The notes: generated by a model not told the origin, from the sequence alone. DNA of 64,000 bases from Acidobacteriota bacterium (GCA_965263035.1 OZ253580.1:1392196-1456195), one strand, 5' to 3'; positions 2,477-59,261 are shown, counted from the first letter of the stretch. Program-made: numbers and translations.

Positions 2477-2507
2477 GGCGACTGGAAGTCGCCCCTCCTT
2501 GTTTCTT
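2477..2507 (+). terminator. Putative intrinsic terminator after the glycosidase-like gene.
   Basis: A 7-bp stem GGCGACT-gga-AGTCGCC is followed by the T-rich run CCTCCTTGTTTCTT. Confidence 0.4.
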
Positions 2508-2587
2508 AGAAGAGTGAAGAATGGCGGGTCGTTGACGCGTAGCGGGCCGCGGGCCGGTGGGGAAATTTCTAACGGGATAACGAATCA

Positions 2588-3646: not shown

Positions 3647-3685
3647 CCGGACCGGTTCCTTCCTGTCCGCTCCGGTAGATTCGCC

Positions 3686-4606: not shown

Positions 4607-4723
4607 CGCCAGGAGTCCAATGCGCCGTCCCCGGCTCCATTTCGGGTGTCCCCTTCGACCCGTCTCCCGCGCTTTCCGGAACGAATCGTCCGGCCGGTCC
4701 GTATTTGCTGAGAGACCGGTTCA

Positions 4724-6168: not shown

Positions 6169-6255
6169 TTCGCATCTCGGAAAACCGAATCACGGCCTCC
6201 AATTGGTTCAGCAGTGCGCCCCGGGCTGATAGACTGTGAGCCGGGAACAGCCGGT

Positions 6256-6822: not shown

Positions 6823-6964
6823 GAGGAGAGAGACGGCAGACGCCGGGGCGGCCTTGTGAACGCCCGTTAGCGCCGGCAACCGGTCATCCGCCGGCAAACC
6901 CGTTCATCGCGATACCGCGGCGAACGGACGGCTCGAAGACTTTCCCACGGACTTCTGAATTCCA

Positions 6965-11176: not shown

Positions 11177-11197
11177 GATCAGGCCGGAGGGCTAGCT

Positions 11198-19971: not shown

Positions 19972-19981
19972 CAAGCAGCCG

Positions 19982-20797
19982 TCAATTGGAGAAGTACCAG
20001 CGCAGAATCTCGGGACCCCAAAGGGCGGCCGCAGCCGATGCCACACCCAGGAACGTTCCGAACGGCAACGGGTAGCTCCGTCGCTTGGAGCGGGCCCGCA
20101 TGTAGATGGAGCCCGCGACGGCTCCCACCACCGAACCCAGGAAGACGCTCAGCCAGGCACACTTCCAGCCCAGGAAGGCGCCCAGCATGGCCGTCATCTT
20201 GACGTCGCCGAATCCCATCCCGTCGATGCCTGAAAAACGGCGGTAGAGGGCGGCGATCAACCAAAGAAAGCCACCTCCCACCCCGGCTCCCAGGAGGGAG
20301 AATCCCAGGTGGTCCCAGGCCGGGAGCGACGCCGTCCTCGCCTCCCAGTGGAAGAAATCCGGATCCTGAAAAGGCGACAGGAGGACACCGGCCGCCAAAC
20401 CTCCGAGCGTCAGGACGTCGGGCAGGATCCGATGGTAAAGGTCGATGACGGTGAGAGCCAGGATCAACGCCAGGAACAGGCAGCTGACCACAAAGGCCGA
20501 GGACCAACCGAACCGCATCCAGGCGGTGACAAAAAGAGCTGCGGTCGCGGCCTCCAGCAGCGGGTACTGGAGAGAGATGCGCCGGTGGCAGGCGCGGCAG
20601 CGGCCCTTGAGGAGCAAGAAGCTCAAGACCGGAATGTTGTCCCCGGCCGATATCGGTTTCGAGCAGTTCGGGCAGCGGGAGCGGGGCCGAATGACCGACT
20701 CCCGGCGCGGGAGACGGTGAATGCAGACATTGAGAAAGCTTCCGATCACCAATCCGGCCAGGGCCGGCACGACTGCGATCCAATCCATCTCCCGCAA
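19982..20797 (-). CDS. pilD: Prepilin peptidase (A24 family, PilD/GspO).
   Basis: N-terminal GSFLNV, the Cys-rich RCPNC...CRAC zinc site and a multi-TM C-terminal peptidase domain. Confidence 0.85.
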   Translation of the reverse strand: MREMDWIAVVPALAGLVIGSFLNVCIHRLPRRESVIRPRSRCPNCSKPISAGDNIPVLSFLLLKGRCRACHRRISLQYPLLEAATAALFVTAWMRFGWSSAFVVSCLFLALILALTVIDLYHRILPDVLTLGGLAAGVLLSPFQDPDFFHWEARTASLPAWDHLGFSLLGAGVGGGFLWLIAALYRRFSGIDGMGFGDVKMTAMLGAFLGWKCAWLSVFLGSVVGAVAGSIYMRARSKRRSYPLPFGTFLGVASAAAALWGPEILRWYFSN

Positions 20798-23899: not shown

Positions 23900-24130
23900 G
23901 GTAGCGTCCTCATGAGGGTTAGGGACTGACATTCAGTATATCCGTAGTCAGGCAGATCTGCCAAGAACACGCCGGAACCGTTACGGTCTTTCCATGTGCG
24001 CCGCATCTCTGCTAACTTCCTTCACCATATTCCGATGCTTCCACAAGCTTCCGGGTTCAATAGCTCAAGGCCACCCGTCTTCCTCGGCGGAGAGGTCCGC
24101 TCCTGGGTCAAGATACTGACCGCGTCCCAG

Positions 24131-25726
24131 ATGGGGACCGTGGACCGGCTCACCACCCGGGACTGCGGACTCCCCAGCCTGCTGTTGATGGAAAACGCCG
24201 GGCTGAACCTGTATCAGGTCCTAAAATCCCACTTCGGGGAACGGCTTGCCAGCCGCTCCACCGTGATTCTCTGCGGCAAAGGGAACAACGGCGGAGACGG
24301 TCTGGTCCTGGCGCGCCAATTGGCGCGCCGCGAATCTTCCCCGACGGTGGTCCTGCTCTGCAGACCCGGGCAGCTGCGGGGAGACGCCGCCGTCCAGTTG
24401 AAGGCGTACCGGAAATCCGGTGGAGAGGTGGTGTCCGTCACCTCACGGGAGGAGTGGACGAAGGTTGCGCCCATCCTCGGCAGCTGCCGGATCTTGGTGG
24501 ACGCCCTCCTGGGAACCGGGCTCGGACGTCCCGTAACCGGACTGCTCGCAGAGGTGGTTCGGGACGTCAACGGCAGCGGCGCCTTCGTGCTGGCCGTGGA
24601 CATCCCGACGGGTACCCCCTCCGACGGCCTCCGGCCTATCGGGCCCTCGGTCCGGGCTCACGCCACCGTCACCTTCACGGCCCCCAAGATCGCCCACATT
24701 CTTCACCAGGAGCCGGAGACGTTCGGACAGATCTACGTCACTCCCATCGGGACGCCCCTCCAGGTGCTGGATACACCGGAACACTTTCTGAACCTGATGA
24801 TGCCTGCCCGGATCCGGGCGGTCCTGCCGGCCCGAAAGGCGTTCTCCCACAAGGGCACATTCGGGCATGTGGCGGTCATTGCGGGGAGCCGGGGCAAGAC
24901 CGGGGCCGGCGCCCTGGCCTCCCGAGCCGCGTTGAGATCCGGGTCCGGCCTGGTGACGGGCTTGGCCCCCGACGCCGTCCAACCACTGATGGCCTCCTTC
25001 CAGCCTGAGATCATGACGGAAGGGGTGCCGTCCACGCCCGCTGGAACCTTGGCCTCGTCCGGAATCGATCGCATTCTGGAACTATTGGAGGGCAAGGACG
25101 CCGCCGGCCTGGGGCCGGGCCTGAGCACGGAGAAGGAAACCGTCGACGTGGTTCGCCGGCTGACGCGGGAGGCCGAGGTTCCCCTGGTCCTGGATGCCGA
25201 CGCCTTGAACGCCTATGCCGGCCGGGCCCACGAGTTGGTCAACCTGAAGGGGCAACCCCTCGTCATCACTCCCCACCCGGGCGAGTTTGCCCGCCTGACG
25301 GCCCATTCCATTCCGCAAATTACGGAAAACGGGATCTCCATCGCCCGCGAGTTCGCCCGGAACCGGAATCTCTGGCTCGTGCTCAAGGGGTTCCGGACCC
25401 TGGTGGCGTCGCCGGACGGCCAAGTCTATGCCTGTCCGCTGGGAAACCCGGGAATGGCCACCGCAGGAAGCGGCGACGTCCTTACGGGCGTGATCACCTC
25501 TTTCCTGGGCCAGTATCGGGCCCAGGCCCGCGTCTCTCCGCCGCAGACCACCGACGCCGTCGTCACCGCCGTCTACCTCCATTCCCTGGCCGGCGATCTG
25601 GCGGCCCAAACGCGGGGGATGGACTCGCTGGCGGCCACAGACATCATCGATCACCTGGGATCGGCCTTCCTCCAGCTGCGCGGCCGTGGAGGGCGGCACA
25701 GCGACCCGGTGGGAAATGCGGGCTAG
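24131..25726 (+). CDS. nnr: Bifunctional NAD(P)H-hydrate repair enzyme (epimerase + ADP-dependent dehydratase).
   Basis: YjeF-N motif ILCGKGNNGGDGLVLARQL and the C-terminal carbohydrate-kinase-like domain with GSGDVLTGVI. Confidence 0.85.
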   Translation: MGTVDRLTTRDCGLPSLLLMENAGLNLYQVLKSHFGERLASRSTVILCGKGNNGGDGLVLARQLARRESSPTVVLLCRPGQLRGDAAVQLKAYRKSGGEVVSVTSREEWTKVAPILGSCRILVDALLGTGLGRPVTGLLAEVVRDVNGSGAFVLAVDIPTGTPSDGLRPIGPSVRAHATVTFTAPKIAHILHQEPETFGQIYVTPIGTPLQVLDTPEHFLNLMMPARIRAVLPARKAFSHKGTFGHVAVIAGSRGKTGAGALASRAALRSGSGLVTGLAPDAVQPLMASFQPEIMTEGVPSTPAGTLASSGIDRILELLEGKDAAGLGPGLSTEKETVDVVRRLTREAEVPLVLDADALNAYAGRAHELVNLKGQPLVITPHPGEFARLTAHSIPQITENGISIAREFARNRNLWLVLKGFRTLVASPDGQVYACPLGNPGMATAGSGDVLTGVITSFLGQYRAQARVSPPQTTDAVVTAVYLHSLAGDLAAQTRGMDSLAATDIIDHLGSAFLQLRGRGGRHSDPVGNAG

Positions 25727-29186: not shown

Positions 29187-29353
29187 CTAGGAGGCTGCGC
29201 CGCAGAAATTGATCTACTGCGAAAGCGGTAGAATCGGTCCATATTTCCTCGATTTCTCGGCGAATAGAACAACTATGCACCTCCAAATCGAGAAAATCTG
29301 GCCTCGATTCCCCACTTTCTCGCTACGATCATTTCTACCGCGCAGACTCCTAG
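29187..29353 (+). repeat. MITE-like ~165-bp repeat, copy A.
   Basis: Same sequence as 50846-51012. Its reverse complement is at 35103-35268. Terminal inverted repeats GAGGCTGCGCCGCAGAAAT ... ATTTCTACCGCGCAGACTC. A CTAG tetranucleotide bounds both ends. Confidence 0.85.
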
Positions 29354-29355
29354 CC

Positions 29356-31817
29356 CTGCTCTATACCCACAAATAGTGCTGGACAAACAAGAATGCCTGT
29401 CGTAGTCTTCACGACATGGTAGTTCAGAACCAGATCAAGCGCACCTTGAGCCGAGAGTTGGATCGTTTGCACGCCGTGATGAGGCGGGAGAAGTTCGCCC
29501 ACCGGACGGCGCTGGCGGACCGGGTCTGCTCGGAGTTTGGATTTCACGATGCCCGAGGGCGGGCGCAACGGAGCGGCTGCCTGAAGGCGCTCCGGGAGCT
29601 GGAGGCGGGCGGACGGATTCGTCTGCCGACGCCGCGACGGCGGGTGAAACATTGCGGGCCCCGAGGACTGGGCCGTGCGGTGCCGGAGCCGGTGGAAGTG
29701 CCCGAGACGGTGGACGGCGTGCGGGAGCTGGAGTTGATTCTGGTGGAGACGGGTCCGCAACGAGCGCTCTGGAACGAGTTGATGGCGCGAGAGCATCCAC
29801 GGGGCGCGGGGCCGTTGGTGGGTGCTCAACTACGCTATCTGGTGGGCTCGGCCCACGGCTGGCTGGGGGGCTTGGGGTTCGGGGCGGCGGCGTTGCGGTT
29901 GCGGGACCGGGACCGCTGGATCGGATGGGATGAGGAACAACGCCGGGCGCACCTGCACCGGGTGGTGGGGCTGAGCCGGTTTCTGATCCGTCCGTCAGTG
30001 AGGTGTCGTAATCTGGCCTCCCGGGTGCTGGGGGAGGTGTTGCGGCGGCTGGGTCCGGAGTTCCAGGCGCGCTACGGCTACCGTCCCTGGCTGGTGGAGA
30101 CCTTCGTGGAGACGGCTCGCCACGATGGGGCCAGTTTGCGCGCCACGAACTGGAGGGTTCTGGGGAAGACGCAGGGTCGAGGCCGGCAAGATCGGGCGCA
30201 CCGGGGTGCGGAGACGAGCAAGGCGATCTATGGGTATGAGTTGTGCCGGGATTGGCGTCGGCGGTTGGGGGTGGGACCGGCGCCGAGGCGGGGAGTGGAA
30301 CCGATGTCGGAGGGCGAGGGACTGGAGGGAGAGGGCTGGGCTCAGCAGGAGTTGGGCGGGGCGCCGCTGGGAGACCGGCGCTTGAGTCGGCGACTGGTGG
30401 AGAGTGCGCACCGTCAGGCGCAGGAGCCGGGGCGGGCGTTCACGGGAGTGGCGCGGGGCGATCCGGCGGCGGTCAAGGGATACTACCGGCTGATCGACCA
30501 GCCGGAAGCCTCGGCGGTGACGGTGTCCAACATCCTGGCCCCGCACCGGGAGCGGACCCGGCAGCGGATGCAGGGGCAGCGGACGGTGCTGTGCATCCAG
30601 GACGGGAGCGATCTGAACTTCACGCGGCACGGCCGGTGTGAGGGACTGGGGGTGATCGGGCGCAACCAGACGGGAGCGACGGCGCGGGGACTGCATCTGC
30701 ACGCGACGCTGGTGGTGAGTGAGACGGGGCTGCCGCTGGGGGTGTTGCGGGCGAAGCTGGACGCGCCGAAGCCGGGACCGGTGGCCACGCGGAAAAAGAA
30801 GAAGACGTATCGCTGGATCGAGGGACTTCGGGACTGCGCCGAGGTGTCGCGGTCCCTCGACGGGGTGCGGGTGGTCAGCGTGGTGGACCGGGAGGCGGAT
30901 TTTTTCGCACTGTTCGCCGAGCAACGAGCGTCTCCGGAGGTGGAGTTGCTGGTGCGTGCGAAGCAGGATCGGGTGCTGAAGAGGAAGACCCCGGCGAAGG
31001 CGGCCGGGAAAAGCGCGGATCCGGACCCGGAGCAGAAGCGGAAGCTGTTCGGGCGCCTGCGATCGGCGCCGGTGCGGGCCCGGATGCTGCTGGAGGTGAA
31101 GCGTCAGAGTGCGCGGATCAAGGCCAGCAAGCAGGCGGCCCGCCCGCGGCGGCTGGCGCGGGTGGCTCGGATGGAACTGCGCTACGAGACCCTGACGATT
31201 CCGGCGCCGCGCGGGAACCCAACCGGCATCCCGTCGCTGAGACTGTCGGTGGTGCACGCGCGGGAGGTCGCGCCGCCGGCGCAGGGGAAGCGCCTGGAAT
31301 GGTTCCTGCTCACCACCCTGCCGGTGACCGATGTCGAGACGGCGCAGCAACTGCTGAGATGGTATGCGCTGCGCTGGCGGGTGGAGGATTATTTCCGGGT
31401 GCTCAAGACCGGATGCCGGGTACAACAGCTCCAGCACCAAACCGCCGAACGTCTGAAACGGGCCATCGCCATGCACGCCGTCATCGCCTGGCGGATCATG
31501 CTGATGACGCTGTTGGGGCGAGAGGACCCGGACCTGCCGGCGCAATTGTTGTTCTCGGATCTGGAAATTCGGGTCCTGGGGGCGTTTGCCGCGTCGCGAG
31601 GATTCCCAGCGCCGGAAGACCTGGGGGCGGCCGTGCTCGTGCTGGCCCGCCTGGGAGGATATCTGGCTCGTAAACACGACTCCCCACCTGGGCATCAACT
31701 GATGTGGCAGGGCTACGTCACGCTCTACGGCATGTGTCTGGGCTTCGCTTTACGAGAAGAAACATGAATGAAACCGGACGGCTAATTTGCCCTGTGCAAT
31801 ATGTGGGTAAAGGGCAG
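29356..31817 (+). mobile_element. IS4/Tn5-like insertion sequence, copy 2.
   Basis: 8-bp TSD TCCTAGCC at 29348-29355 and 31818-31825. The left IR carries one mismatch (CTGCTC). Confidence 0.9.
29416..31767 (+). CDS. Fusion transposase (DUF4338-like N-domain + Tn5-type DDE transposase), copy 2.
   Basis: 783 aa, ~99% identical to copies 3 and 4. Confidence 0.85.
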   Translation: MVVQNQIKRTLSRELDRLHAVMRREKFAHRTALADRVCSEFGFHDARGRAQRSGCLKALRELEAGGRIRLPTPRRRVKHCGPRGLGRAVPEPVEVPETVDGVRELELILVETGPQRALWNELMAREHPRGAGPLVGAQLRYLVGSAHGWLGGLGFGAAALRLRDRDRWIGWDEEQRRAHLHRVVGLSRFLIRPSVRCRNLASRVLGEVLRRLGPEFQARYGYRPWLVETFVETARHDGASLRATNWRVLGKTQGRGRQDRAHRGAETSKAIYGYELCRDWRRRLGVGPAPRRGVEPMSEGEGLEGEGWAQQELGGAPLGDRRLSRRLVESAHRQAQEPGRAFTGVARGDPAAVKGYYRLIDQPEASAVTVSNILAPHRERTRQRMQGQRTVLCIQDGSDLNFTRHGRCEGLGVIGRNQTGATARGLHLHATLVVSETGLPLGVLRAKLDAPKPGPVATRKKKKTYRWIEGLRDCAEVSRSLDGVRVVSVVDREADFFALFAEQRASPEVELLVRAKQDRVLKRKTPAKAAGKSADPDPEQKRKLFGRLRSAPVRARMLLEVKRQSARIKASKQAARPRRLARVARMELRYETLTIPAPRGNPTGIPSLRLSVVHAREVAPPAQGKRLEWFLLTTLPVTDVETAQQLLRWYALRWRVEDYFRVLKTGCRVQQLQHQTAERLKRAIAMHAVIAWRIMLMTLLGREDPDLPAQLLFSDLEIRVLGAFAASRGFPAPEDLGAAVLVLARLGGYLARKHDSPPGHQLMWQGYVTLYGMCLGFALREET

Positions 31818-34901: not shown

Positions 34902-35102
34902 GGGTCCATCGTTTTCGAGCCCAGTCTACTACGACGCCGCGCCCGTCTGCCAGCCGGACGGAGCCCTGACCCGCGGGGCATCGGCCCATTCCGGGACCAT
35001 CGTCCGGCTCTAGCGGACCCAGGGTCGGAGCCACTCAACTTCCGGTCGAATTCCTCATCGAATGTTGGCGAGCGCCATCAACCTTGACGGGGTTCTGCAC
35101 CA

Positions 35103-35268
35103 CTAGAGTCTGCGCGGTAGAAATGATCGTAGCGAGAAAGTGGGGAATCGAGGCCAGATTTTCTCGATTTGGAGGTGCATAGTTGTTCTATTCGCCGAGA
35201 AATCGAGGAAATATGGACCGATTCTACCGCTTTCGCAGTAGATCGATTTCTGCGGCGCAGGCTCCTAG
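35103..35268 (-). repeat. MITE-like repeat, copy B (inverted orientation).
   Basis: Reverse complement of copy A. CTAG at both ends (35103-35106 and 35265-35268). Confidence 0.85.
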
Positions 35269-35287
35269 CCTGATTGCCGAAGGGTTC

Positions 35288-35611
35288 CTATTGCCGGAAG
35301 AGTTCGTATGCCTCAGGGAGGAAAATCCGGGCGGTCATGATCTCCGTCATGGGGATGACGACCCGAAAATCTCCATACGCCAATCCGGATGACCCCTCAA
35401 GGGACCTCCATATCATAGGCGCATAGTTGGTCTTGACTACCAACTCCTGTTTGTCTTTATCGCGGTAGCCGCTAGCCATCGGGACGATCTTAATATCGCC
35501 CTCACCCTGGCTTTCGATTCCGCTCTTGAGGGGGAAGCCAATGTATACCTTTCTGCTCTTCAGCGAGATCTCAACCAGCCTTTGATTCTCGATGGATTCC
35601 GCGACGAGCAA
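35288..35611 (-). CDS. Hypothetical protein in a lower-GC islet.
   Basis: 107-aa ORF with no recognisable family. Local GC (~52%) is well below the surrounding sequence. Confidence 0.3.
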   Translation of the reverse strand: MLVAESIENQRLVEISLKSRKVYIGFPLKSGIESQGEGDIKIVPMASGYRDKDKQELVVKTNYAPMIWRSLEGSSGLAYGDFRVVIPMTEIMTARIFLPEAYELFRQ

Positions 35612-36427
35612 CTCAATGAGGTCACCGCCTCTTTCTGCTACTCGTCAAGCGGCCTGTTCTTCGCTGTAGAAACGGTTGCCCACAAACGGCAGCACGAAGC
35701 CCAACAGGGCACTCGGCAGTATTGCCGTCGAGGAGTAGGGGATTGATCCGTACGACGTCCATGCCGGGTCTATCCAAGACCAATAATAGTGCAGAGGAAG
35801 AACCATCAAGTGTCCAATCCCCGCCAGAATGCCGCCGAGACCGCGGCCCGGAAGAAGACATGGTAACCGGAATCACGCAGAGCGCCGTAGCGGGTGAAGT
35901 AGAGATGGGTCAGGAACCAGTATCCACCCAGAGCCGAGACGAGAAACAGACCAAGACCCAAGGGCAACAGTTCCTGACAGATTGATGGCGTTGATCCTTA
36001 CTGGCGTTTTTCCGGAGATGCACCGGACGAATCCCTTCCAAAGTCAAGTTTCGCCATTTTTTCGATGACGGCGCGCGCCCGCTTGCTGCGGAGCAGATCA
36101 TCTGCTTTGACGTACAGCGCGCCCTTTGGCGTCACGTACACCGGAGGACGTTCCGGGTCCGTTGACGACGGTGCCTTTGGCGAAGTCTTCGTCATGATGT
36201 CTCCTTACTCCATAACGTCCGAAACTCATCGTACATGATCAAGGTGCTTTCGGACATGGAGCGGACCCGGCCAGCCCTCAAGATGGGCTGAAGTTCGAGC
36301 CTGCCCGGTTCTTCCTTTCATCGGAAGGGAGACCGTGTCGCTTGTAATTCACGGCGACCCGACATTAGGCGTCGCCGGGAGCGCATCCCCATATGCGGTG
36401 CGAAGCGGGGACCCTTGCCCCGAACCG

Positions 36428-37354
36428 TCAACGCAACAGATAGGCCAAGGCCAGGCCGACCTGGGCCGTCAGCGTCAGGAGATACATCTGCCGCCAACTG
36501 GGGTGGTTCTCCCAGTCCATGCTCCCTTCCCATTCCTGCGAAGACCGGACCAGCAGGAGGATGATCCAACCGCCCCAACCGGCGAGAATCAGCCCCAGGC
36601 CCGCCAGCAGCGCCGGTTGTCCGGACAGCAGCCCGAAGACCGCGCCCGGGACGAGGGCCAGAAATGGCAGTACAAAGAAAGGCGCGATGATCCGGATCGA
36701 CCGGTGCACGCCATAGATAACGGGAAGCGTCCGGCAGCCGCCCCGGCGGTCCCCCTCCACGTCGGAGAAGTCCTTCGTGGTGACGGCCCCCAGGAAATAG
36801 ACTCCCAGGATCGCACCGAGCACCCAAGGCTCCGGCTGCAGCACATGCTTCACGGTGGACCAACCGGCCACCGGGAGCAGCGTTCCCCGGACGACGGCGA
36901 TGGTCAGGTTGGCCCAGATGCCTCGAGACTTGGTCCGGAATGGAGGCGCCGAGTAGAGACAGGTTCCCAGGGCGCCTCCGAGAACGACGAGAAAGCACTG
37001 GTAATTGATCCAGATGGCCAGCAGCAGGGCGACCACCAGGAAGACCAGACTGAGGCCCCAGGCTTCCGGCATGGAGATGCGGCCCGATGGCAGCATGCGG
37101 TGAGGCTTGTTGATACGATCGATCTCCAGGTCGCAGATCTGGTTGAGGCCGTTGGAAAAGGCGTTCAGCGCGGCCGCCAGAACGGCTCCGGCCAAGATCC
37201 GCAGAATGATCTCCTCACCCCCCGGGCTCCAGTCGGATACTCCCTTCGGATCCACCGAGAGCCCCATGAGTGCGCCGCAGACCATTCCCAGCGCCGGCAC
37301 CAGCAGGGTGAAGGGGCGAATGAACCGGAAGTAACGGACGATTGGTTCAGGCAT
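36428..37354 (-). CDS. UbiA-family membrane prenyltransferase.
   Basis: NQICDLEIDRINKPHRMLPSG matches the UbiA Asp-rich motif. Eight to nine TM helices. Confidence 0.8.
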   Translation of the reverse strand: MPEPIVRYFRFIRPFTLLVPALGMVCGALMGLSVDPKGVSDWSPGGEEIILRILAGAVLAAALNAFSNGLNQICDLEIDRINKPHRMLPSGRISMPEAWGLSLVFLVVALLLAIWINYQCFLVVLGGALGTCLYSAPPFRTKSRGIWANLTIAVVRGTLLPVAGWSTVKHVLQPEPWVLGAILGVYFLGAVTTKDFSDVEGDRRGGCRTLPVIYGVHRSIRIIAPFFVLPFLALVPGAVFGLLSGQPALLAGLGLILAGWGGWIILLLVRSSQEWEGSMDWENHPSWRQMYLLTLTAQVGLALAYLLR

Positions 37355-37447
37355 GACGCGGCGGGTGCTTTACCTCGAAGCCCGGAAGGCACGGGCAACC
37401 GGCAGCGATTCCGAGTCGTCGGGAATCCATCGGCGCCGATCCATTTC

Positions 37448-38779
37448 TCAAGGGGTCGCCGGGGAACGGAAAAGGAACCAGATTCCCCCGCTGGCGCAGG
37501 CTCCCGCCAACGTATTGTACAAGTTGAGCACCTGGTGCCGGCCCGGGCCGTCCCGCCCGTCGCCGGCCAGCCAAGACTCGACTCCATTCCCCGCAATGGC
37601 TCCGGCCGCCAACGCCGGCAGTGCCGACGCAGGAATCCAGCTCCACAGGACCGGAACCGACGAAACCGCCAGGGCCGCAACCGATCCGGCCAGCGTGCCC
37701 GCAAGTGAAACGGCGCCGGGAGTCCCCACCGGAACCGGCTTGAAGGTGCGGAGATCCCTGGGAGTCCGTCCCAACCACTGCCCGATCTCGGTGGCGACCG
37801 TGTCCAGGGTGGCGGCGGCCAGGGCGCCGGTGTAGGCCACTCGCGCCACCGTGCTGTCGGCCCAGAAAAACAGCAGCGCCAGGATGCCCGCGACCAGACC
37901 CTTGGACAGAACGTTGGCCACGCCTCTCCGTCCGAGATTCTCTTCCGCGACTCCCAGAGCCTCCTTCCGTCCCTTCCCCAACCAGGTGCTGAACCCGCCC
38001 AGGAAGAAAAAGAGGCAGAGGACGACATAGCCCGCGGGTCCCGCCGAGAGATAGACGCCGATCCCCAGGACCAGCCCGGCGGCGGCGCCGCGCCAGGAGA
38101 TCCAACCCACCATCAGACTGAGGCCGGCCAGGAGCAAGTTGATTCCAACCGCGTGGGACCAGGGCGCGGCCAGCTCGGGAATCAGGTCGGGCGCGCCCAG
38201 GAGCAGCGGGAAGATCCCGGCGCCGACCACCACGATGACCAGATTGTCGTCCACCAGGTTCGGCAACGACTCGGCCAAGGCGCAGACCAGGGAACCGAAA
38301 AGACAGAAGGCTGCCAGCGTGAGACTGGAAATTCCGTCCGATTGCGGCAGGTTCCAGACCAGGAGTGTCCAGGATCCCGCCGTCGCCGCCAGGAAGAAGC
38401 CAAGGGAGCCGCCCAGGCTCTTCTCCCGATTGTAGGGGAGTGGGACCCAGGGCCACCGCCGTCCCGCCAAGTTGGAAACCGAGTCTCCCACCGCCAGAAC
38501 GGCCCAGACGGCCGCCGCGACGTGAAGGCGCTCGCGAAACAGGAGAAGCAGCATCATGATTCCGAAGGCGTAGTAGAGCTTGCCGGCGGAGTATCCCGCC
38601 TCCCGTTCCGAACCCCGCGTCGTCACCCGGATCCAACGAGGGGAAATGAACGCGGCGTAGAAAAACGAAAAGAGGCTCAGGAGAAGGATCAGCCCGTAGT
38701 CCACGTAGGGAAGGAGAAAGGCGAAGGCCAGGGGCAGCACATGTTCCAGCTGCCTCAGGTCCTCTCTTCCGTCCTTCAT
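37448..38779 (-). CDS. Fusion membrane protein: CTP-transferase/phytol-kinase-like domain (dolichol kinase/VTE5/CdsA family) + DUF92 (TMEM19/VTE6-like) domain.
   Basis: N-half AVLAVGDSVSNLAGRRWPWVPLPYNREKSLGGSLGFF resembles the CTP_transf_1 catalytic loop. C-half NVLSKGLVAG...ATLDTVATEIGQ resembles DUF92 conserved blocks. The Met at 38777-38779 overlaps the TGA of the upstream SDR gene (ATGA). Confidence 0.65.
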   Translation of the reverse strand: MKDGREDLRQLEHVLPLAFAFLLPYVDYGLILLLSLFSFFYAAFISPRWIRVTTRGSEREAGYSAGKLYYAFGIMMLLLLFRERLHVAAAVWAVLAVGDSVSNLAGRRWPWVPLPYNREKSLGGSLGFFLAATAGSWTLLVWNLPQSDGISSLTLAAFCLFGSLVCALAESLPNLVDDNLVIVVVGAGIFPLLLGAPDLIPELAAPWSHAVGINLLLAGLSLMVGWISWRGAAAGLVLGIGVYLSAGPAGYVVLCLFFFLGGFSTWLGKGRKEALGVAEENLGRRGVANVLSKGLVAGILALLFFWADSTVARVAYTGALAAATLDTVATEIGQWLGRTPRDLRTFKPVPVGTPGAVSLAGTLAGSVAALAVSSVPVLWSWIPASALPALAAGAIAGNGVESWLAGDGRDGPGRHQVLNLYNTLAGACASGGIWFLFRSPATP

Positions 38780-39699
38780 GATCCCATCCAACGGTTCGTG
38801 CTGCTCAGGCCCTCCTCCAGGGAGCGGGCCGAGTAGCCCAGATGGGAGCGGGCCTTGCCCGAGGAAAACCGCCAGTTCTGGAGAAAGAACTCGGCCGTGG
38901 AGGGGACCAGCAACGGCGAGGTCCCCCGCAGTCGCGCGCTCCAGTCCTCCAACCGGGCGGCGGCGCGAAACAGCCCGTCCGGGAGACCCAGGGGAACGAT
39001 CGGCACGTCCGCAACCCTTCGGAAGGTCGCATACAGATCCCGGAGCGTCCGGTTTTCGCCTCCCAGGACGAAATCCTCTCCGGGGTCGGCATCCAGGCAT
39101 CGAACCAGAGCCTCGGCGACGTCGTCCACGTAGACGAAGTTCCAGCAGGGGGCCCCGCGGCCGGGCAGTGCCGCCACACGCAGCTTCTTCCACCGCCGAA
39201 GGAGACGCACCAGCAGGTTCCCCTCCGTCATCGGCCCGGGGCCGTACACGACGGTGGGAAAGACCGTGTTCATGGGAAGCCGTTCCTTCCACCGGCCGGC
39301 CAGTCGAAATGCCTCGAATTTGCTCTGGTCGTACCCGTGGAAGAATCGGGTCCTGTCGGGAATTCGTTCCTCGGTATGGATCCCGTCGCCGCTGGGGCCA
39401 AAGATGGTGAACGAGGAGACATGGACCATCCTGGCAACCCGGTGGCGCCGAGCCAGTTCCAGGACGTTCCTCAAACCGTCCACGTTGACCCGGAGGAAGG
39501 GGCCGGGCCGGGCCTGGACCAGGGCGGCCAGATGAAACACGGCCTCAGCGTCCCGGAAGCTGGGCTCCAAGGTCCGGATGCGGGTCACGTCCTGGCCCCG
39601 GGATCGCGAAGCCACGGTCACGTCGTGCCCTTGCTCCCTTAGCCTTCGCACCAGGACACTCCCCAGGAAGCCTGTCCCGCCCGTGACCAGGCACCTCAT
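38776..39699 (-). CDS. NAD-dependent epimerase/dehydratase-family SDR.
   Basis: N-terminal Rossmann motif VTGGTGFLGSVLVRRL. ~307 aa. Confidence 0.75.
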   Translation of the reverse strand: MRCLVTGGTGFLGSVLVRRLREQGHDVTVASRSRGQDVTRIRTLEPSFRDAEAVFHLAALVQARPGPFLRVNVDGLRNVLELARRHRVARMVHVSSFTIFGPSGDGIHTEERIPDRTRFFHGYDQSKFEAFRLAGRWKERLPMNTVFPTVVYGPGPMTEGNLLVRLLRRWKKLRVAALPGRGAPCWNFVYVDDVAEALVRCLDADPGEDFVLGGENRTLRDLYATFRRVADVPIVPLGLPDGLFRAAARLEDWSARLRGTSPLLVPSTAEFFLQNWRFSSGKARSHLGYSARSLEEGLSSTNRWMGS

Positions 39700-41678
39700 G
39701 GCGATTCGAATGACCAGGCGCGGCCGTCCAGGGGCTCAGGATCTTCGACCTGAAACAACCGGTACAGCGTCGGCGCCACGTCCATGATGTGAGGATTCTC
39801 CGTAACGATGGTGCGATTTGAGACCGCGAAACCCGCGGTGTCCGAAAAATCGGAAGCACAGTGGTCGCCGCTCCATTTCCTGAGGTTGGCGACGAGGACG
39901 TGCTCGGGCACCGCACCCAGGGCCGTCTGCCACGAAGTCCGGTAACCGGAGCGGAAGCTGAGCTGGATGTCTCCGGCATGCTCGATCTCTTCACCGGTGT
40001 AGATCTCGTCCCTGAAATAAGCGTTCTGCAGCACCGGTTCTCCGGTTTCCGGGTCCCGATACTCGAGAATATCGCGAGAGATTTCCCGGACCAGATCCAT
40101 ATAGCCGCGGCCGGGTTCGACGATTCCCTGACCCTCCCGCCCCTTCAGGTTCACGTAGATATGGCCCAGGCCCAGGGCGTAGGCTCGAGTCCGGCTCCAG
40201 TCCACGTTGGGGAAGAAGCTTCCGCCGCGATAGACCTGCTCCATCCGCTTCAGATCAGTGTCGGCCCGCACGCCTTTGAGAACCACGAAACCATTCTCCA
40301 GGAGCCAGGTGTTGGTGTTGAATTCCTTGCGCCAGGAGTGAAACCCATGATCGGAAACGACCAGCAGCAGGTCCTGGGGATCCAGGTGCTCCAGGACTCG
40401 GGAAAGGATGGAGTCCATTTTCCGGTAGACGTTCAACAGGAATCTGCCGTAGGCCTGTGCGGCCTCCGGGTCGTAACGGGGATGATGGGGGTCGATGAAG
40501 CGGTAGAACATGTGGGCGGCGCTGTCGGTGGCCGTGAAAACGGCCGTGTACAGGGACGCCTTACCTCGTTCCAGCTCGTGCATCAGGAGCCGCTCCAGAT
40601 GGTTCATGTTGCGGAAGAGGTCCTCCAGAAAGACCTGCTCGTCGATCTGCTCCTCGTTCAGGCCCCAGGTCTCGTGGACCCAGCCGAGAGTCTTGAACGG
40701 GAAGAGTTGGGCGGCCAGGTCTTCCGAGTAACCGGCCGGACTCGATAGAGGCAGGATGGGATCGGCCGGATCGAGGCTGATGGGCATCAGGTAGAGCCTC
40801 ACTTCGGGAAATGTCTCCAGTACGTAGAAGCGGCTGATTCCGCGGATCTTGACCAGGGGCCCCGCGGAGAAGGCGAAGCGGAACCAGTCGCTCCACTGTC
40901 CCTCGTCGACCTCCTCTTCCTGATCCTGGAGCCTCAGCGTCAGGGAGGTCGACTGCGGGTCCAACTCCACCGACAGCGGGATCGTCAGCCGGACCAGGTC
41001 CTCTTCTCTGGGGTCGGCGGGTCCGTCGATCTGCGCTTGAAAACGGCCGTCCTGCTCTTCCAGGCGGATCACCCGGCCGCCGAACTCCGTATCCTGCAGG
41101 TCCCAGCGGCTCACGTCGGTGGAGAGGTAGAAGTAGGTCCCCCAGGTCCCCCGGACGTCGGGCACGCCCAGCCCCGACAGCGTGGTCCCATGGTCCAGGG
41201 ACCGGGCCGGGAACTCCAGGGGAAGCCGCAGATTGGCGGTGACGATGCCGGATCGATCCAGTTGCTCCCAAAAGGGGACGCCCTTGCGGTTGTTGGTCAA
41301 TCGGGCTCCGCGGATGGGGATGGTCTTGAACAGGAAGCGAGGCTTTTCCACCGTCACCAGCCCGATGTCGGGCATGTAGGTGACCGGGTCCCGCCGGAGA
41401 AAGTCGAAGATTCCGTGCCGGCCTGGATTGAGTCCGGTGGCGAAACTGGCCCAGGCCACGGGGGACGCGGGAGGGTTGGTGGTTCCCAGGGTCGACAGGG
41501 TCCCCTGCTCCCCCAGGCGGCGGATAGTGGGAAGCTCTTCGATCCATCGATCCACCAGGTCGGGATCCACACCGTCGAAGCCCAGGACCACGACCTTGAA
41601 CCCTGTACGCCTGGGGTCAGGCGTACAGAAGGATCCCAGAAGGACGATCAGAATGAGTCCCAGCCGACTCCAGGTCAT
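39696..41678 (-). CDS. Secreted alkaline-phosphatase-superfamily protein (type I phosphodiesterase/nucleotide pyrophosphatase-like).
   Basis: Signal peptide. VVVLGFDGVDPDLVD ... NPPASPVAWASFATGLNPGRHGIFDF is a typical metal-site N-terminal block of AlkP-core/NPP enzymes. It overlaps the SDR gene by 4 bp. Confidence 0.65.
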   Translation of the reverse strand: MTWSRLGLILIVLLGSFCTPDPRRTGFKVVVLGFDGVDPDLVDRWIEELPTIRRLGEQGTLSTLGTTNPPASPVAWASFATGLNPGRHGIFDFLRRDPVTYMPDIGLVTVEKPRFLFKTIPIRGARLTNNRKGVPFWEQLDRSGIVTANLRLPLEFPARSLDHGTTLSGLGVPDVRGTWGTYFYLSTDVSRWDLQDTEFGGRVIRLEEQDGRFQAQIDGPADPREEDLVRLTIPLSVELDPQSTSLTLRLQDQEEEVDEGQWSDWFRFAFSAGPLVKIRGISRFYVLETFPEVRLYLMPISLDPADPILPLSSPAGYSEDLAAQLFPFKTLGWVHETWGLNEEQIDEQVFLEDLFRNMNHLERLLMHELERGKASLYTAVFTATDSAAHMFYRFIDPHHPRYDPEAAQAYGRFLLNVYRKMDSILSRVLEHLDPQDLLLVVSDHGFHSWRKEFNTNTWLLENGFVVLKGVRADTDLKRMEQVYRGGSFFPNVDWSRTRAYALGLGHIYVNLKGREGQGIVEPGRGYMDLVREISRDILEYRDPETGEPVLQNAYFRDEIYTGEEIEHAGDIQLSFRSGYRTSWQTALGAVPEHVLVANLRKWSGDHCASDFSDTAGFAVSNRTIVTENPHIMDVAPTLYRLFQVEDPEPLDGRAWSFESP

Positions 41679-48298: not shown

Positions 48299-48381
48299 CT
48301 TTGGCGAAGGCCCTGCGCAGCCATTGCCGCAATCTCCGTCCAGAGGGTCCGCTCGCCGCACCGTAGAGGGGCTGGCTAGGA

Positions 48382-50843
48382 CTGCCCTATACCCACAAAT
48401 AGTGCTGGACAAACAAGAATGCCTGTCGTAGTCTTCACGACATGGTAGTTCAGAACCAGATCAAGCGCACCTTGAGCCGAGAGTTGGATCGTTTGCACGC
48501 CGTGATGAGGCGGGAGAAGTTCGCCCACCGGACGGCGCTGGCGGACCGGGTCTGCTCGGAGTTTGGATTTCACGATGCCCGAGGGCGGGCGCAACGGAGC
48601 GGCTGCCTGAAGGCGCTCCGGGAGCTGGAGGCGGGCGGACGGATTCGTCTGCCGACGCCGCGACGGCGGGTGAACCATTGCGGGCCCCGAGGACTGGGCC
48701 GTGCGGTGCCGGAGCCGGTCGGGGTGCCCGAGACGGTGGACGGCGTGCGGGAGCTGGAGTTGATTCTGGTGGAGACGGGTCCGCAACGAGCGCTCTGGAA
48801 CGAGTTGATGGCGCGAGAGCATCCACGGGGCGCGGGGCCGTTGGTGGGTGCTCAACTACGCTATCTGGTGGGCTCGGCCCACGGCTGGCTGGGGGGCTTG
48901 GGGTTCGGGGCGGCGGCGTTGCGGTTGCGGGACCGGGACCGCTGGATCGGATGGGATGAGGAACAACGCCGGGCGCACCTGCACCGGGTGGTGGGGCTGA
49001 GCCGGTTTCTGATCCGTCCGTCAGTGAGGTGTCGTAATCTGGCCTCCCGGGTGCTGGGGGAGGTGTTGCGGCGGCTGGGTCCGGAGTTCCAGGCGCGCTA
49101 CGGCTACCGTCCCTGGCTGGTGGAGACCTTCGTGGAGACGGCTCGCCACGATGGGGCCAGTTTGCGCGCCACGAACTGGAGGGTTCTGGGGCAGACGCAG
49201 GGTCGAGGCCGGCAAGATCGGGCGCACCGGGGTGCGGAGACGAGCAAGGCGATCTATGGGTATGAGTTGTGCCGGGATTGGCGGCGGCGGTTGGGGGTGG
49301 GACCGGCGCCGAGGCGGGGAGTGGAACCGATGTCGGAGGGCGAGGGACTGGAGGGAGCGGGCTGGGCTCAGCAGGAGTTGGGCGGGGCGCCGCTGGGAGA
49401 CCGGCGCTTGAGTCGGCGACTGGTGGAGAGTGCGCACCGACAGGCGCAGGAGCCGGGGCGGGCGTTCACGGGAGTGGCGCGGGGGGATTCTGCGGCGGTC
49501 AAGGGATACTACCGGCTGATCGACCAGCCGGAAGCCTCGGCGGTGACGGTGTCCAACATCCTGGCCCCGCACCGGGAGCGGACCCGGCAGCGGATGCAGG
49601 GGCAGCGGACGGTGCTGTGCATCCAGGACGGGAGCGATCTGAACTTCACGCGGCACGGCCGGTGTGAGGGACTGGGAGTGATCGGGCGCAACCAGACGGG
49701 AGCGACGGCGCGGGGACTGCATCTGCACGCGACGCTGGTGGTGAGTGAGACGGGGCTGCCGCTGGGGGTGTTGCGGGCGAAGCTGGACGCGCCGAAGCCG
49801 GGACCGGTGGCCACGCGGAAAAAGAAGAAGACGTATCGCTGGATCGAGGGACTTCGGGACTGCGCCGAGGTGTCGCGGTCCCTCGACGGGGTGCGGGTGG
49901 TCAGCGTGGTGGACCGGGAGGCGGATTTTTTCGCACTGTTCGCCGAGCAACGAGCGTCTCCGGAGGTGGAGTTGCTGGTGCGTGCGAAGCAGGATCGGGT
50001 GCTGAAGAGGAAGACCCCGGCGAAGGCGGCCGGGAAAAGCGCGGATCCGGACCCGGAGCAGAAGCGGAAGCTGTTCGGGCGCCTGCGATCGGCGCCGGTG
50101 CGGGCCCGGATGCTGCTGGAGGTGAAGCGTCAGAGTGCGCGGATCAAGGCCAGCAAGCAGGCGGCCCGCCCGCGGCGGCTGGCGCGGGTGGCTCGGATGG
50201 AACTGCGCTACGAGACCCTGACGATTCCGGCGCCGCGCGGGAACCCAACCGGCATCCCGTCGCTGAGACTGTCGGTGGTGCACGCGCGGGAGGTCGCGCC
50301 GCCGGCGCAGGGGAAGCGCCTGGAATGGTTCCTGCTCACCACCCTGCCGGTGACCGATGTCGAGACGGCGCAGCAACTGCTGAGATGGTATGCGCTGCGC
50401 TGGCGGGTGGAGGATTATTTCCGGGTGCTCAAGACCGGATGCCGGGTACAACAGCTCCAGCACCAAACCGCCGAACGTCTGAAACGGGCCATCGCCATGC
50501 ACGCCGTCATCGCCTGGCGGATCATGCTGATGACGCTGTTGGGGCGAGAGGACCCGGACCTGCCGGCGCAATTGTTGTTTTCCGATCTGGAAATCCGGGT
50601 CCTGGGGGCGTTTGCCGCGTCGCGAGGATTCCCAGCGCCGGAAGACCTGGGGGCGGCCGTGCTCGTGCTGGCCCGCCTGGGAGGATATCTGGCTCGTAAA
50701 CACGACTCCCCACCTGGGCATCAACTGATGTGGCAGGGCTACGTCACGCTCTACGGCATGTGTCTGGGCTTCGCTTTACGAGAAGAAACATGAATGAAAC
50801 CGGACGGCTAATTTGCCCTGTGCAATATGTGGGTAAAGGGCAG
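48382..50843 (+). mobile_element. IS4/Tn5-like insertion sequence, copy 3.
   Basis: 8-bp TSD GGCTAGGA at 48374-48381 and 50844-50851. The right TSD overlaps the start of MITE copy C. Confidence 0.9.
48442..50793 (+). CDS. Fusion transposase, copy 3.
   Basis: 783 aa. It differs from copy 4 at ~2 positions. Confidence 0.85.
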   Translation: MVVQNQIKRTLSRELDRLHAVMRREKFAHRTALADRVCSEFGFHDARGRAQRSGCLKALRELEAGGRIRLPTPRRRVNHCGPRGLGRAVPEPVGVPETVDGVRELELILVETGPQRALWNELMAREHPRGAGPLVGAQLRYLVGSAHGWLGGLGFGAAALRLRDRDRWIGWDEEQRRAHLHRVVGLSRFLIRPSVRCRNLASRVLGEVLRRLGPEFQARYGYRPWLVETFVETARHDGASLRATNWRVLGQTQGRGRQDRAHRGAETSKAIYGYELCRDWRRRLGVGPAPRRGVEPMSEGEGLEGAGWAQQELGGAPLGDRRLSRRLVESAHRQAQEPGRAFTGVARGDSAAVKGYYRLIDQPEASAVTVSNILAPHRERTRQRMQGQRTVLCIQDGSDLNFTRHGRCEGLGVIGRNQTGATARGLHLHATLVVSETGLPLGVLRAKLDAPKPGPVATRKKKKTYRWIEGLRDCAEVSRSLDGVRVVSVVDREADFFALFAEQRASPEVELLVRAKQDRVLKRKTPAKAAGKSADPDPEQKRKLFGRLRSAPVRARMLLEVKRQSARIKASKQAARPRRLARVARMELRYETLTIPAPRGNPTGIPSLRLSVVHAREVAPPAQGKRLEWFLLTTLPVTDVETAQQLLRWYALRWRVEDYFRVLKTGCRVQQLQHQTAERLKRAIAMHAVIAWRIMLMTLLGREDPDLPAQLLFSDLEIRVLGAFAASRGFPAPEDLGAAVLVLARLGGYLARKHDSPPGHQLMWQGYVTLYGMCLGFALREET

Positions 50844-51012: not shown

Positions 51013-51533
51013 ACCTCGCCGTAGACCTCCGCAAGGGCCTTGTTCTCGACCCGGATGCGCGTACGGAGCGCTAGCAGGTTCAGCACGGATGCGATCACTG
51101 CCAGTGTCCACGCGCCGAACATCAGCGGCACCACGGCGATCTCGCCGCAAACGATCAGGTAATTCGGGTGGTTGACGTAGCGGTACGGCCCGGCCCGAAT
51201 GCGTTTGGCGCCGGGCACGACCATGACGCGAGTCGTCCATCGCGAACCCAGGGTCACGACCACCCACACCCGCCCGCACTCCAGCAGGACGAAGACGGCC
51301 AGCAGCGGGATCGACACCGGCGTCTGCGGATCGATGGTGCCAAGCAGCGCCAGCAGCCAGCCGGCGTGCAGGGCGACAAGCGCGGGATAGTGCCGCCGGC
51401 CGAACTCGATCGCCCCCCGAGCCACCAGCGCCCGATGGTTGCGCCGTGCGATGCCCAGTTCCACGAGACGCTGAAAAACCAGAAAGCCGATGATCGCGTA
51501 CAGGGGGCTCATGGGAAACGAGCTCAGCATCAC
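51009..51533 (-). CDS. Isoprenylcysteine carboxyl methyltransferase (ICMT)-family membrane methyltransferase.
   Basis: Multi-TM ~170-aa protein with the C-terminal RVENKALAEVYGE-type motif of ICMT/phospholipid methyltransferase family enzymes. It overlaps the PKS gene by 4 bp. Confidence 0.7.
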   Translation of the reverse strand: MMLSSFPMSPLYAIIGFLVFQRLVELGIARRNHRALVARGAIEFGRRHYPALVALHAGWLLALLGTIDPQTPVSIPLLAVFVLLECGRVWVVVTLGSRWTTRVMVVPGAKRIRAGPYRYVNHPNYLIVCGEIAVVPLMFGAWTLAVIASVLNLLALRTRIRVENKALAEVYGEV

Positions 51534-52585
51534 ATCGACTGCAGTAGCAGGAATCCGGCCGAAAACCCCGGGCCCAGGCTGGTCAACAGGTGCCGTTTCG
51601 CCGTGCGGTCCCTGAGCATGCGGTCGAGTACGAACAGCACGGTCGCGGCCGACATGTTGCCGTAGTCACGCAAGACCGCCCGCGACTCTTCGAGCCCCCC
51701 GGGCGGGAGGTCGAACGCCTCTTCGAGGGCGTCAAGCACCTTGGCGCCGCCGGGGTGGCAGACGAAGCTGTCGATATCGCGAAGACCCAGGCTCCGGGTG
51801 GAAAGAAATTCCTCCGTTGCGCGCCGCATGCGCGAACGGACGAGGTCGGGAATACTGCGCGAGAACACGACCCCGAACCCGTCATCGGCCACGTCCCAAC
51901 CCATGATGTCGAGCGAATCAGGCCACGTGTATTCGCCCCACGAGGAGATCGCCGGTCCCGGTCCGTCATCCGTCAGCAATACCGCCGCGGCGCCGTCACG
52001 GAACAACGCCGTGGCGACGAGGTTCCGAACGGATCGATCGCGGCCACGGAACGTGAGGGTGCAGAGTTCTACGACCAGGAACAGAACGCGACTGCCAGGA
52101 GAAGCCCGCGCACAAGCGGCGGCGCGCGCCAGCCCCAGCACGCCTCCTGCGCATCCCAGACCGAAGATCGGCAGTCTTTGCACGTCGCGGCGAAACGGCA
52201 GCTCGGTCATGAGCCTGGCGTCCAGGCTGGGCGTAGCGATGCCGGTCGTCGAGACGGTGACGATCAGGTCGATGTCGCCGGGGTCGGTGTTGCCGGCGGC
52301 CAGGCACTCGACGGCCGCGTCTTTCAGCAGGGCCACCGCATTTTCGAGGTACAGCCGGTTCTTCTCCGCGAAGCCGTGCCCGGTTTCCCCGTACCAGCTT
52401 CTGGGCAGGCAGCAATACCCTTCTCCGATCGCCGCGTTCTCGTAAACATCAAGCAGGCGATCCAGGCCCGCGACGCTGCCGGCAAAGAAACTGGCACCGA
52501 AATCCCTGACCTCGTCCTGGGTTATCCGGTGGGACGGAACCGCCGTCGCGATCGACCTGATTCGCGGACCCGATTCTGCCGTCAC
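51530..52585 (-). CDS. Type III polyketide synthase (chalcone/stilbene synthase family).
   Basis: Catalytic Cys in GLGCAGG, His in CHPGGAKV, Asn in GNMSAATVLFVL, and the GPGFS C-terminal motif. Confidence 0.85.
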   Translation of the reverse strand: MTAESGPRIRSIATAVPSHRITQDEVRDFGASFFAGSVAGLDRLLDVYENAAIGEGYCCLPRSWYGETGHGFAEKNRLYLENAVALLKDAAVECLAAGNTDPGDIDLIVTVSTTGIATPSLDARLMTELPFRRDVQRLPIFGLGCAGGVLGLARAAACARASPGSRVLFLVVELCTLTFRGRDRSVRNLVATALFRDGAAAVLLTDDGPGPAISSWGEYTWPDSLDIMGWDVADDGFGVVFSRSIPDLVRSRMRRATEEFLSTRSLGLRDIDSFVCHPGGAKVLDALEEAFDLPPGGLEESRAVLRDYGNMSAATVLFVLDRMLRDRTAKRHLLTSLGPGFSAGFLLLQSM

Positions 52586-59127: not shown

Positions 59128-59261
59128 CCGAAGGAACCGATCGGAAGGAGGAGGCGCGGCCGCGGCGTTTTCGGCCGTACCCTGAGTACAGTGACTCCGG
59201 TATCGAGTCGCTGGGCGAAATTCCGGCACATTGGGACGTGAGACGGCTCAAGACCCTAGCC
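59124..59261 (+). pseudogene. hsdS: Type I R-M specificity subunit HsdS, 5' fragment (gene split by IS copy 4).
   Basis: Encodes VTEGTDRKEEARPRRFRPYPEYSDSGIESLGEIPAHWDVRRLKTLA. IPAHWDVRRLK is HsdS N-terminus-like. The frame is broken by the IS at 59262. Confidence 0.7.

Follow-up and report, generated by a model that had tools for sequence, protein, structure and literature searches.

A VTE5/VTE6-like fusion gene linked to a distinct UbiA subfamily in Acidobacteriota and its possible role in lipid prenylation

The 64,000-nucleotide stretch of DNA considered here (GCA_965263035.1 OZ253580.1:1392196-1456195; hereafter, the window) derives from an uncultured Acidobacteriota bacterium of soil or sediment and has a G+C content of ~63%. 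Four genes on its minus strand code for an alkaline phosphatase (AlkP)-superfamily protein, an extended short-chain dehydrogenase/reductase (SDR), a fusion of two kinase-like halves, and a UbiA-superfamily intramembrane prenyltransferase. We consider it somewhat better than an even chance (about 0.55) that this cluster encodes a modular pathway of lipid prenylation, in which the SDR and the kinase-kinase fusion feed the UbiA enzyme and an exported enzyme acts on the product to trim its head group. The substrates and activities named below are all what we infer from domain identities, catalytic motifs, gene linkage and the pattern of presence and absence of the genes.

Conservation and layout of the cluster

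A search seeded with the fusion protein retrieved homologs only in Acidobacteriota, where they occur in Terriglobia, Vicinamibacterales, Thermoanaerobaculia, Polarisedimenticolia and Aminicenantes-type metagenome-assembled genomes. A UbiA ortholog is located within 3.5 kb of the fusion gene in 70 of 80 genome loci of this phylum, on the same strand in 68 of them, at fusion protein identities of 30–92%; six of the ten loci without UbiA end within ~1.2 kb of the fusion gene. Conversely, a search seeded with UbiA, counted over metagenome loci with at least 3 kb on both sides, revealed an open reading frame (ORF) comprising both fusion halves directly upstream in 17 of 19 cases. The conservation in relatives that the initial annotation of this region proposed to check is thus borne out for the fusion-UbiA linkage, and from either seed gene. 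In 49 of the 80 loci the SDR gene directly precedes that of the fusion, and ORF clustering places an SDR in 58. Two gene orders occur, SDR-fusion-UbiA and, in Terriglobia, UbiA-SDR-fusion; the SDR and fusion genes stay together in both, and the genes flanking the cluster vary between classes. Two pairs are conserved as units, SDR-fusion and fusion-UbiA. The AlkP gene, which the initial annotation had counted as an operon member, is indeed present in the clade of the window, but it falls outside the phylum-wide core: it adjoins the cluster in five of the 80 genome loci (L001–L004 and L007) and otherwise only in L081 and L109, and is an accessory member confined to certain clades.

Might these genes be neighbours by chance, or through housekeeping synteny, with no joint function? 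The genes around the cluster in the window are housekeeping genes (nuo, thiG, aroB, ubiE), and the AlkP gene is clade-restricted, both of which favour this view. However, the adjacency holds down to ~30% identity, in at least five classes and in two gene orders, the linkage is recovered whichever gene is used as seed, and the flanks are not conserved, so that mere coincidence has a probability close to nil.

Two flanking genes were discarded as cluster members or partners. A Rv2578c-type radical SAM gene located 3' of UbiA in Vicinamibacterales was found in 24 loci only and belongs to a DNA-repair-type family. A neighbouring dehydroquinate (DHQ)-synthase-like gene, considered as a glycerol-1-phosphate (G1P) dehydrogenase gene, has the sequence signature of an ordinary AroB and is syntenic in close relatives only. 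On the 5' side, Vicinamibacterales-type loci (L012, L013, L040, L068, L079; about positions 2400–7000) contain accD, folC, and genes for an ~800-aa outer-membrane protein, a long-form RmlA and an NDP-sugar dehydratase/epimerase-like SDR.

In the window, the four minus-strand ORFs were recovered at exactly the coordinates initially assigned to them, along with every peptide motif quoted at the time: AlkP at 39696–41678 (660 aa), SDR at 38776–39699 (307 aa), the fusion at 37448–38779 (443 aa, counted from its ATG), and UbiA at 36428–37354 (308 aa). The 443-aa length of the fusion is shared by its orthologs, which supports the chosen ATG. The junctions had been described as overlapping or abutting. 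This applies to the first three genes, which are joined by 4-nt overlaps with a shared ATGA (AlkP stop/SDR start and SDR stop/fusion start), but not to UbiA, which begins after a 93-nt spacer (37355–37447, minus strand) behind the fusion stop. Simple scans reported neither promoter-like nor terminator-like sites in this spacer, and terminator-like sites within the cluster were not in excess (8 observed versus 6.0 ± 2.5 expected). Identical proteins in public records are labelled only "alkaline phosphatase family", "NAD-dependent epimerase/dehydratase family", "DUF92 domain-containing" and "UbiA family prenyltransferase".

The fusion protein and its UbiA partner

The C-terminal half of the fusion protein (residues 206–443; 37448–38164, minus strand) was confirmed as a member of the DUF92/COG1836 family, to which plant VTE6 belongs, by a match to PF01940 well above the gathering score (128.2 bits versus 27.5; 4.5e-37; residues 214–404). 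Its score of 116.1 bits with TIGR00297 is below the curated cut-off of 205.85, indicating a divergent family member. Residues D326, T327, E331 and G333 are invariant.

Assignment of the N-terminal half (residues 1–205; 38165–38779, minus strand) is based on its orthologs, since Pfam and NCBIfam searches with this half alone yielded nothing usable. Nine of 27 orthologous N-halves match PF01148 (CTP_transf_1; best 2.8e-7), and a profile built from the orthologs retrieved stand-alone proteins, one of them with a PF01148 domain (1.7e-21) and three of them labelled phytol or dolichol kinase (1.4e-15, 5.9e-14 and 1.8e-9). In an alignment with the labelled kinases, R9, H13, D99, G106, G124, E170, D178 and N179 are invariant, and so they are across 48 fusions. 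The N-half carries the motifs of the kinase branch, R..H, GD..A...G, K[ST].xG, E and DN; the succession GD..A...G / K[ST].xG / E...DN is what we take to be the pattern of Sec59/DOLK and VTE5. Its AlphaFold model is confident (pLDDT 92.9). Judged from the ortholog profiles, the place of the N-half within the CTP_transf_1 superfamily is in the phytol/dolichol-kinase branch. Searched against the sequences of the PDB at E ≤ 10, the profile found neither CdsA (4Q2E) nor CarS (5GUF), and its sole match was a spurious one to LHCI (E 0.13); a plain CdsA identity was discarded, as no CdsA chain was found. The initial reading of this half as VTE5/dolichol-kinase-like therefore stands as far as the branch is concerned, though by way of the ortholog profiles and not through a Pfam match of the protein's own sequence.

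The two halves of the fusion are distant homologs of each other. They align in register in hhalign comparisons (E 3e-6 to 8e-5), which pair the acidic motifs GD..sN..GRR with DT.ATEIGQ and ESLP..DDN with ES....LN, and in other fused proteins the N-half profile often matches a second stretch. The whole protein is predicted to form one compact two-domain unit (pLDDT 92.1, pTM 0.91). At E ≤ 1e-30, the fusion family comprises 452 representative clusters (50% identity), the top ones mostly of 430–480 aa.

The prenyltransferase gives a strong match to the UbiA family (PF01040; 154.5 bits versus a cut-off of 34.2; 3.9e-45), but among the NCBIfam models it scores best with ChlG (122.7 bits), BchG/ChlG (114.7), PRK12884 (110.7), homogentisate phytyltransferase (HPT; 106) and DGGGP synthase (DGGGPS; 85), all below the respective cut-offs. 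For the chlorophyll synthase models PRK07566, TIGR01476 and TIGR02056, scores are 122.7, 114.7 and 80.9 bits compared with cut-offs of 313, 212.3 and 436; for the DGGGP synthase models PRK12882 and PRK12883, they are 85.2 and 72.4 bits compared with 296 and 353. The quinone enzymes MenA, UbiA and MqnP, with at most 50.6 bits against cut-offs of 225–430, were rejected by a wide margin, in agreement with the initial view that this is not an ordinary MenA/UbiA protein; a ubiE gene does lie 3.7 kb away, a synteny limited to the two closest relatives. EboC, and with it an ebo cluster, was likewise rejected (57.6 bits versus 250). Both Asp-rich motifs, NQxxDxxxD (N68, N71, Q72, D75, D79) and KDxxDxxGD (K194, D195, D198, D202), are invariant in 28 orthologs, as is a subfamily-specific C-terminal ENHPSW..MY motif (N283, H284, W287, Y291), and sequence identity within the subfamily is at least 50% throughout the phylum. 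By these comparisons the protein is assigned to a distinct subfamily about equally near to chlorophyll synthase, DGGGP synthase and homogentisate phytyltransferase. These nearest characterised subfamilies all use C20 diphosphates.

Among proteins of solved structure, the best sequence match of the prenyltransferase is DGGGP synthase (6M31, 3.9e-21), and DGGGPS-like genes are on record from several bacterial phyla (PMC7852524, PMC6431249). The cluster could accordingly be thought to produce an archaeal-style lipid, with an ether-forming, DGGGPS-like UbiA enzyme acting on glycerol phosphate, the N-half, and possibly the DUF92 half, serving as a CarS-like CTP:lipid-phosphate cytidylyltransferase to activate the product, and the AlkP protein remodelling the head group; the pairing of UbiA and AlkP genes in some contigs (see below) would suit a phosphorylated lipid product. 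But chlorophyll a synthase is an equally good match (9SAU, 9.8e-21), the N-half profile reaches kinase-labelled proteins with the same motifs and not CarS or CdsA, and genes of GGGP synthase or G1P dehydrogenase were present in none of the loci examined. We regard this reading as improbable.

Variant loci and the proposed pathway

Loci that depart from the usual arrangement suggest a division of the cluster into three modules. In 'Ca. Alcyoniella australis' (L084, 8001–11320), kinase and SDR genes are missing beside a UbiA ortholog of 50% identity, which is followed by a gene for a short-chain synthase of farnesyl or geranylgeranyl diphosphate (FPP/GGPP; 240.9 bits with NF045485 and 233 with CrtE, both under the curated cut-offs), and further on by genes for a "variant radical SAM" protein (NF045502, 203 bits) and a LysW-like zinc-ribbon protein. 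On four low-GC metagenome contigs of an unrelated lineage (40–46% G+C; L091, L096, L099, L100), the UbiA ortholog (47–49% identity) is followed directly by an AlkP homolog, and neither kinase nor SDR gene is found by the pair (L091, 7983–11344; L099, 2095–5403). This AlkP homolog, of ~780–840 aa, carries a signal peptide, and two hydrophobic helices are inserted in it. Neighbouring genes on the low-GC contigs include those for V/A-type ATPase subunit I and an ISC1217-like transposase. In L085/L086, a gene for the 228-aa N-half is all that is present (P0106; 6001–6687), AlkP, SDR, DUF92 half and UbiA being lost; the site is syntenic with L081 (gltX-spoU ... CarboxypepD_reg), and the remnant looks like a case of cluster decay. 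Taken together, these exceptions suggest that the donor comes from the SDR and the fusion, for which a prenyl diphosphate synthase can substitute, that UbiA forms the transferase module, and that the AlkP protein acts outside the cytoplasm, in a step that belongs with the UbiA product and not with the kinases.

The AlkP protein matches Phosphodiest (PF01663; 111.2 bits versus a cut-off of 23; 1e-31), and the positions of the metal ligands and the Thr nucleophile (D35, T67, D385, H389, D443, H444, D605, H606) are invariant in six homologs; a search against PDB sequences gave no match. Its N-terminus is a signal or anchor segment with a cysteine at the end (LLGSFC), and homologs of 55–64% identity have the canonical lipoboxes LAAC, IAGC and AAAC, which makes an exported lipoprotein likelier than a freely secreted enzyme. 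The protein initially described as a secreted enzyme with a signal peptide thus appears to be exported, as stated, but rather as an NPP-type lipoprotein. A second protein of the Phosphodiest/NPP family (442 aa) is encoded in the window at 18718–20046 on the minus strand.

The SDR, in which GxxGxxG and YxxxK were read from the sequence, matches the Epimerase family (PF01370; 115 bits; 4.7e-33) and, among PDB sequences, best 3WJ7 (2.8e-26). HpnA (TIGR03466) is its best NCBIfam model with 127.2 bits (cut-off 367.65), and OleD and SdmB come next; orthologs adjoining the fusion in other classes show the same ranking, with HpnA at 187–200 bits. True HpnA was rejected because of the sub-cut-off score and the absence of hpn genes from the loci; genuine acidobacterial hpnA clusters with hpnG (PMC5462960). 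The protein is thus placed by its profile matches in an HpnA/OleD/SdmB-like group of lipid carbonyl reductases. It also matches NAD_binding_4, the "male sterility" fatty acyl reductase family (61 bits versus a cut-off of 20.1), and a thioester-reductase domain model (1e-14). These matches would fit a pathway in which the kinases activate a non-isoprenoid alcohol, for instance a fatty alcohol that the SDR would produce by reducing an acyl thioester or an aldehyde, and UbiA links the alkyl chain as an ether; ether-linked non-isoprenoid lipids are known from Acidobacteria, to go by the reference list of PMC7852524. Yet transfer of the UbiA type requires an allylic diphosphate (PMC9385802), the N-half sorts with isoprenoid-alcohol kinases, the FPP/GGPP synthase neighbour in Alcyoniella indicates an isoprenoid donor, and cross-matches are frequent among extended SDR families. 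A non-isoprenoid substrate therefore seems very doubtful.

The combination of UbiA, phosphatase and SDR also recalls Rv3806c, Rv3807c and DprE2, which we take to be the counterpart set in decaprenyl-phospho-arabinose synthesis. By analogy, the N-half might make a long-chain polyprenyl phosphate as a carrier, onto which UbiA would transfer a phospho-sugar (e.g., phosphoribosyl); AlkP would remove a phosphate, and the SDR would epimerise or reduce the sugar. Dolichol-kinase-like proteins usually supply glycosyl carriers, RmlA and NDP-sugar dehydratase genes occur just upstream in the Vicinamibacterales loci, and archaeal DUF92 genes adjoin uppS (PMC5898192). Against such a carrier speak the top scores of UbiA with ChlG, DGGGPS and HPT. 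For the window protein, the top matches do not include the decaprenyl-phosphate phosphoribosyltransferase model, which with the Alcyoniella ortholog gives 20.7 bits versus a cut-off of 234. Moreover, the SDR is nearer to the lipid reductases HpnA, OleD and SdmB than to sugar enzymes in all classes tested, the prenyl synthase neighbouring UbiA in Alcyoniella is a short-chain one, and the second (DUF92) kinase would be left without a role. We consider the carrier route improbable, to the same degree as the archaeal-style lipid; both of these, as well as the non-isoprenoid alcohol, conflict with at least one computed result.

We therefore return to lipid prenylation as the preferred function of the cluster. 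As part of the donor-supply module, the translationally coupled, HpnA-like SDR would most likely make or reshape an isoprenoid alcohol, e.g., by NADPH-dependent reduction of an isoprenoid aldehyde. The N-half would then phosphorylate a free C15–C20 isoprenoid alcohol of the farnesol, geranylgeraniol or phytol type in a CTP-dependent reaction to the monophosphate, a step proposed because this activity is established for VTE5 and dolichol kinase. Addition of a second phosphate by the DUF92 half, proposed because of VTE6, would give the prenyl diphosphate, from which UbiA would transfer the C15–C20 prenyl group to alkylate an acceptor. Where present, the NPP-type lipoprotein may act on the outer face of the membrane, processing a head group of the product that contains phosphate. 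The initial annotation had proposed that the fused kinases regenerate a prenyl diphosphate for UbiA, and had named as contrary outcomes a CdsA-like fusion, a lack of conservation, and an ordinary quinone-type UbiA; a kinase-branch N-half, a conserved linkage and a non-quinone UbiA were found instead.

Several observations weigh against this pathway. The N-half of the window protein on its own has no Pfam match at E ≤ 10, and the kinase names on the matches of its ortholog profile are automated JGI labels. DUF92 activity has been established solely for plant VTE6 (PMC9782597), the archaeal DUF92 proteins being uncharacterised (PMC5898192). L109 has the order AlkP-fusion-UbiA, without an SDR gene, and the donor context in Alcyoniella is that of one locus. 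Finally, it is hard to see where free prenol would come from in a non-phototroph.

Genomic surroundings, related systems and implications

Between the UbiA stop and thiG, the window contains a gap of ~1.5 kb (34902–36427) with a 107-aa ORF (35288–35611) that lacks a Pfam match. The corresponding gap is 93 nt in the close relative L001 and ~2.9 kb in L003; this difference in size among relatives indicates a variable insertion site. Four direct copies of an insertion sequence (IS) occur on the plus strand of the 64 kb, at 11190–13610, 29348–31770, 48374–50795 and 59254–61675. They are 98–99% identical over the 300-nt stretch compared, and each has a 783-aa ORF in which an N-terminal Druantia DruA domain (PF14236, 2e-31) is joined to a Tn5-type transposase (Tnp_DNA_bind, DDE_Tnp_1, Dimer_Tnp_Tn5). 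About 14 kb from the cluster, past one of the IS copies, a type III polyketide synthase of the chalcone/stilbene-synthase-like type is encoded (51530–52585, minus strand); the phenolic lipids made by such synthases are, in principle, possible prenyl acceptors. Genes for a bifunctional NAD(P)HX epimerase/dehydratase (YjeF_N plus Carb_kinase; 23996–25726, plus strand) and a type I restriction-modification HsdM methylase (54247–56358, plus strand) represent ordinary context.

The precedent for the proposed pathway is the route of plants and cyanobacteria from VTE5 via VTE6 to UbiA-family enzymes such as HPT/VTE2, ChlG and MenA (PMC9782597). Both kinase families, their sequential action and the feeding of UbiA enzymes are thus known already. 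The acidobacterial cluster resembles this route in employing the same two families, the kinase branch of CTP_transf_1 followed by DUF92, and a UbiA-superfamily consumer from the neighbourhood of ChlG, HPT and DGGGPS. It differs in that both kinases form one polypeptide, whose gene is clustered with that of the transferase, and in that an HpnA-like SDR joins them, as does an exported NPP-type enzyme in some clades; furthermore, the cluster UbiA misses the curated cut-offs of ChlG, BchG, HPT and MenA. Since phototrophy is a rare exception in the host phylum, phytol derived from chlorophyll does not suggest itself as a substrate.

Fusions of Sec59/dolichol-kinase-like and DUF92 domains have been described from archaea (arCOG02245, COG1836), e.g., Mbar_A3310, by Makarova, Galperin and Koonin in 2015, who recognised that DUF92/COG1836 is distantly homologous to CTP_transf_1 and has conserved aspartates, and predicted a kinase step in isoprenoid metabolism (PMC5898192). 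The two-domain architecture is the same as in the acidobacterial protein, but the only conserved neighbour in archaea is uppS, the gene of a cis-prenyl diphosphate synthase, compared with UbiA and SDR genes in the bacteria. As the archaeal fusion was described in 2015, the architecture is not new; its bacterial occurrence and context are. Our literature search (DUF92, COG1836, VTE6, prenol and prenyl-phosphate kinases, Acidobacteria UbiA) revealed no description of the bacterial cluster or of the UbiA subfamily, so that the initial impression of an undescribed composition holds for the cluster but not for the fusion as such.

With the DGGGP and chlorophyll synthases represented by 6M31 and 9SAU (E ~1e-20), the cluster UbiA shares both Asp-rich motifs and overall length, but it is far below their cut-offs and has a C-terminal motif of its own, and neither GGGPS/G1PDH nor (bacterio)chlorophyll genes are found near the cluster. 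The ebo cluster (EboA–F) likewise contains a UbiA-like protein, EboC, beside the NPP/AlkP-family protein EboF; EboA, B, D and E are absent here, and ebo clusters lack the kinases.

According to a review of 2022, genes of salvage kinases for farnesol and geranylgeraniol were known in plants and cyanobacteria only (PMC9782597); a prenol kinase has since been reported from malaria parasites (PMC10849223). For animals and most other organisms, prenol salvage kinases are still described as missing. A phylum-wide route of archaeal style, in which a lipid alcohol made by the SDR would be activated by the fused kinases and ether-linked by a DGGGPS-like UbiA to a phosphorylated glycerol-type acceptor, and the exported NPP-type lipoprotein would trim the head group outside the membrane, to give an undescribed membrane lipid, is in our judgement unlikely; if it were true, the fusion would represent the first genetically defined "salvage" kinase pair of the farnesol/geranylgeraniol type outside phototrophs. 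Since it unites both kinase types, and since hundreds of natural variants exist, the fusion would offer a convenient system in which to define how both families work chemically, among them DUF92, which is also the family of human TMEM19. A private UbiA subfamily so strictly linked to the fusion implies a prenylated lipid, which would be made by most classes of the Acidobacteriota, a dominant and poorly cultured phylum of soils and sediments, and which may be relevant to the membrane biology of these bacteria and to the interpretation of lipid biomarkers.

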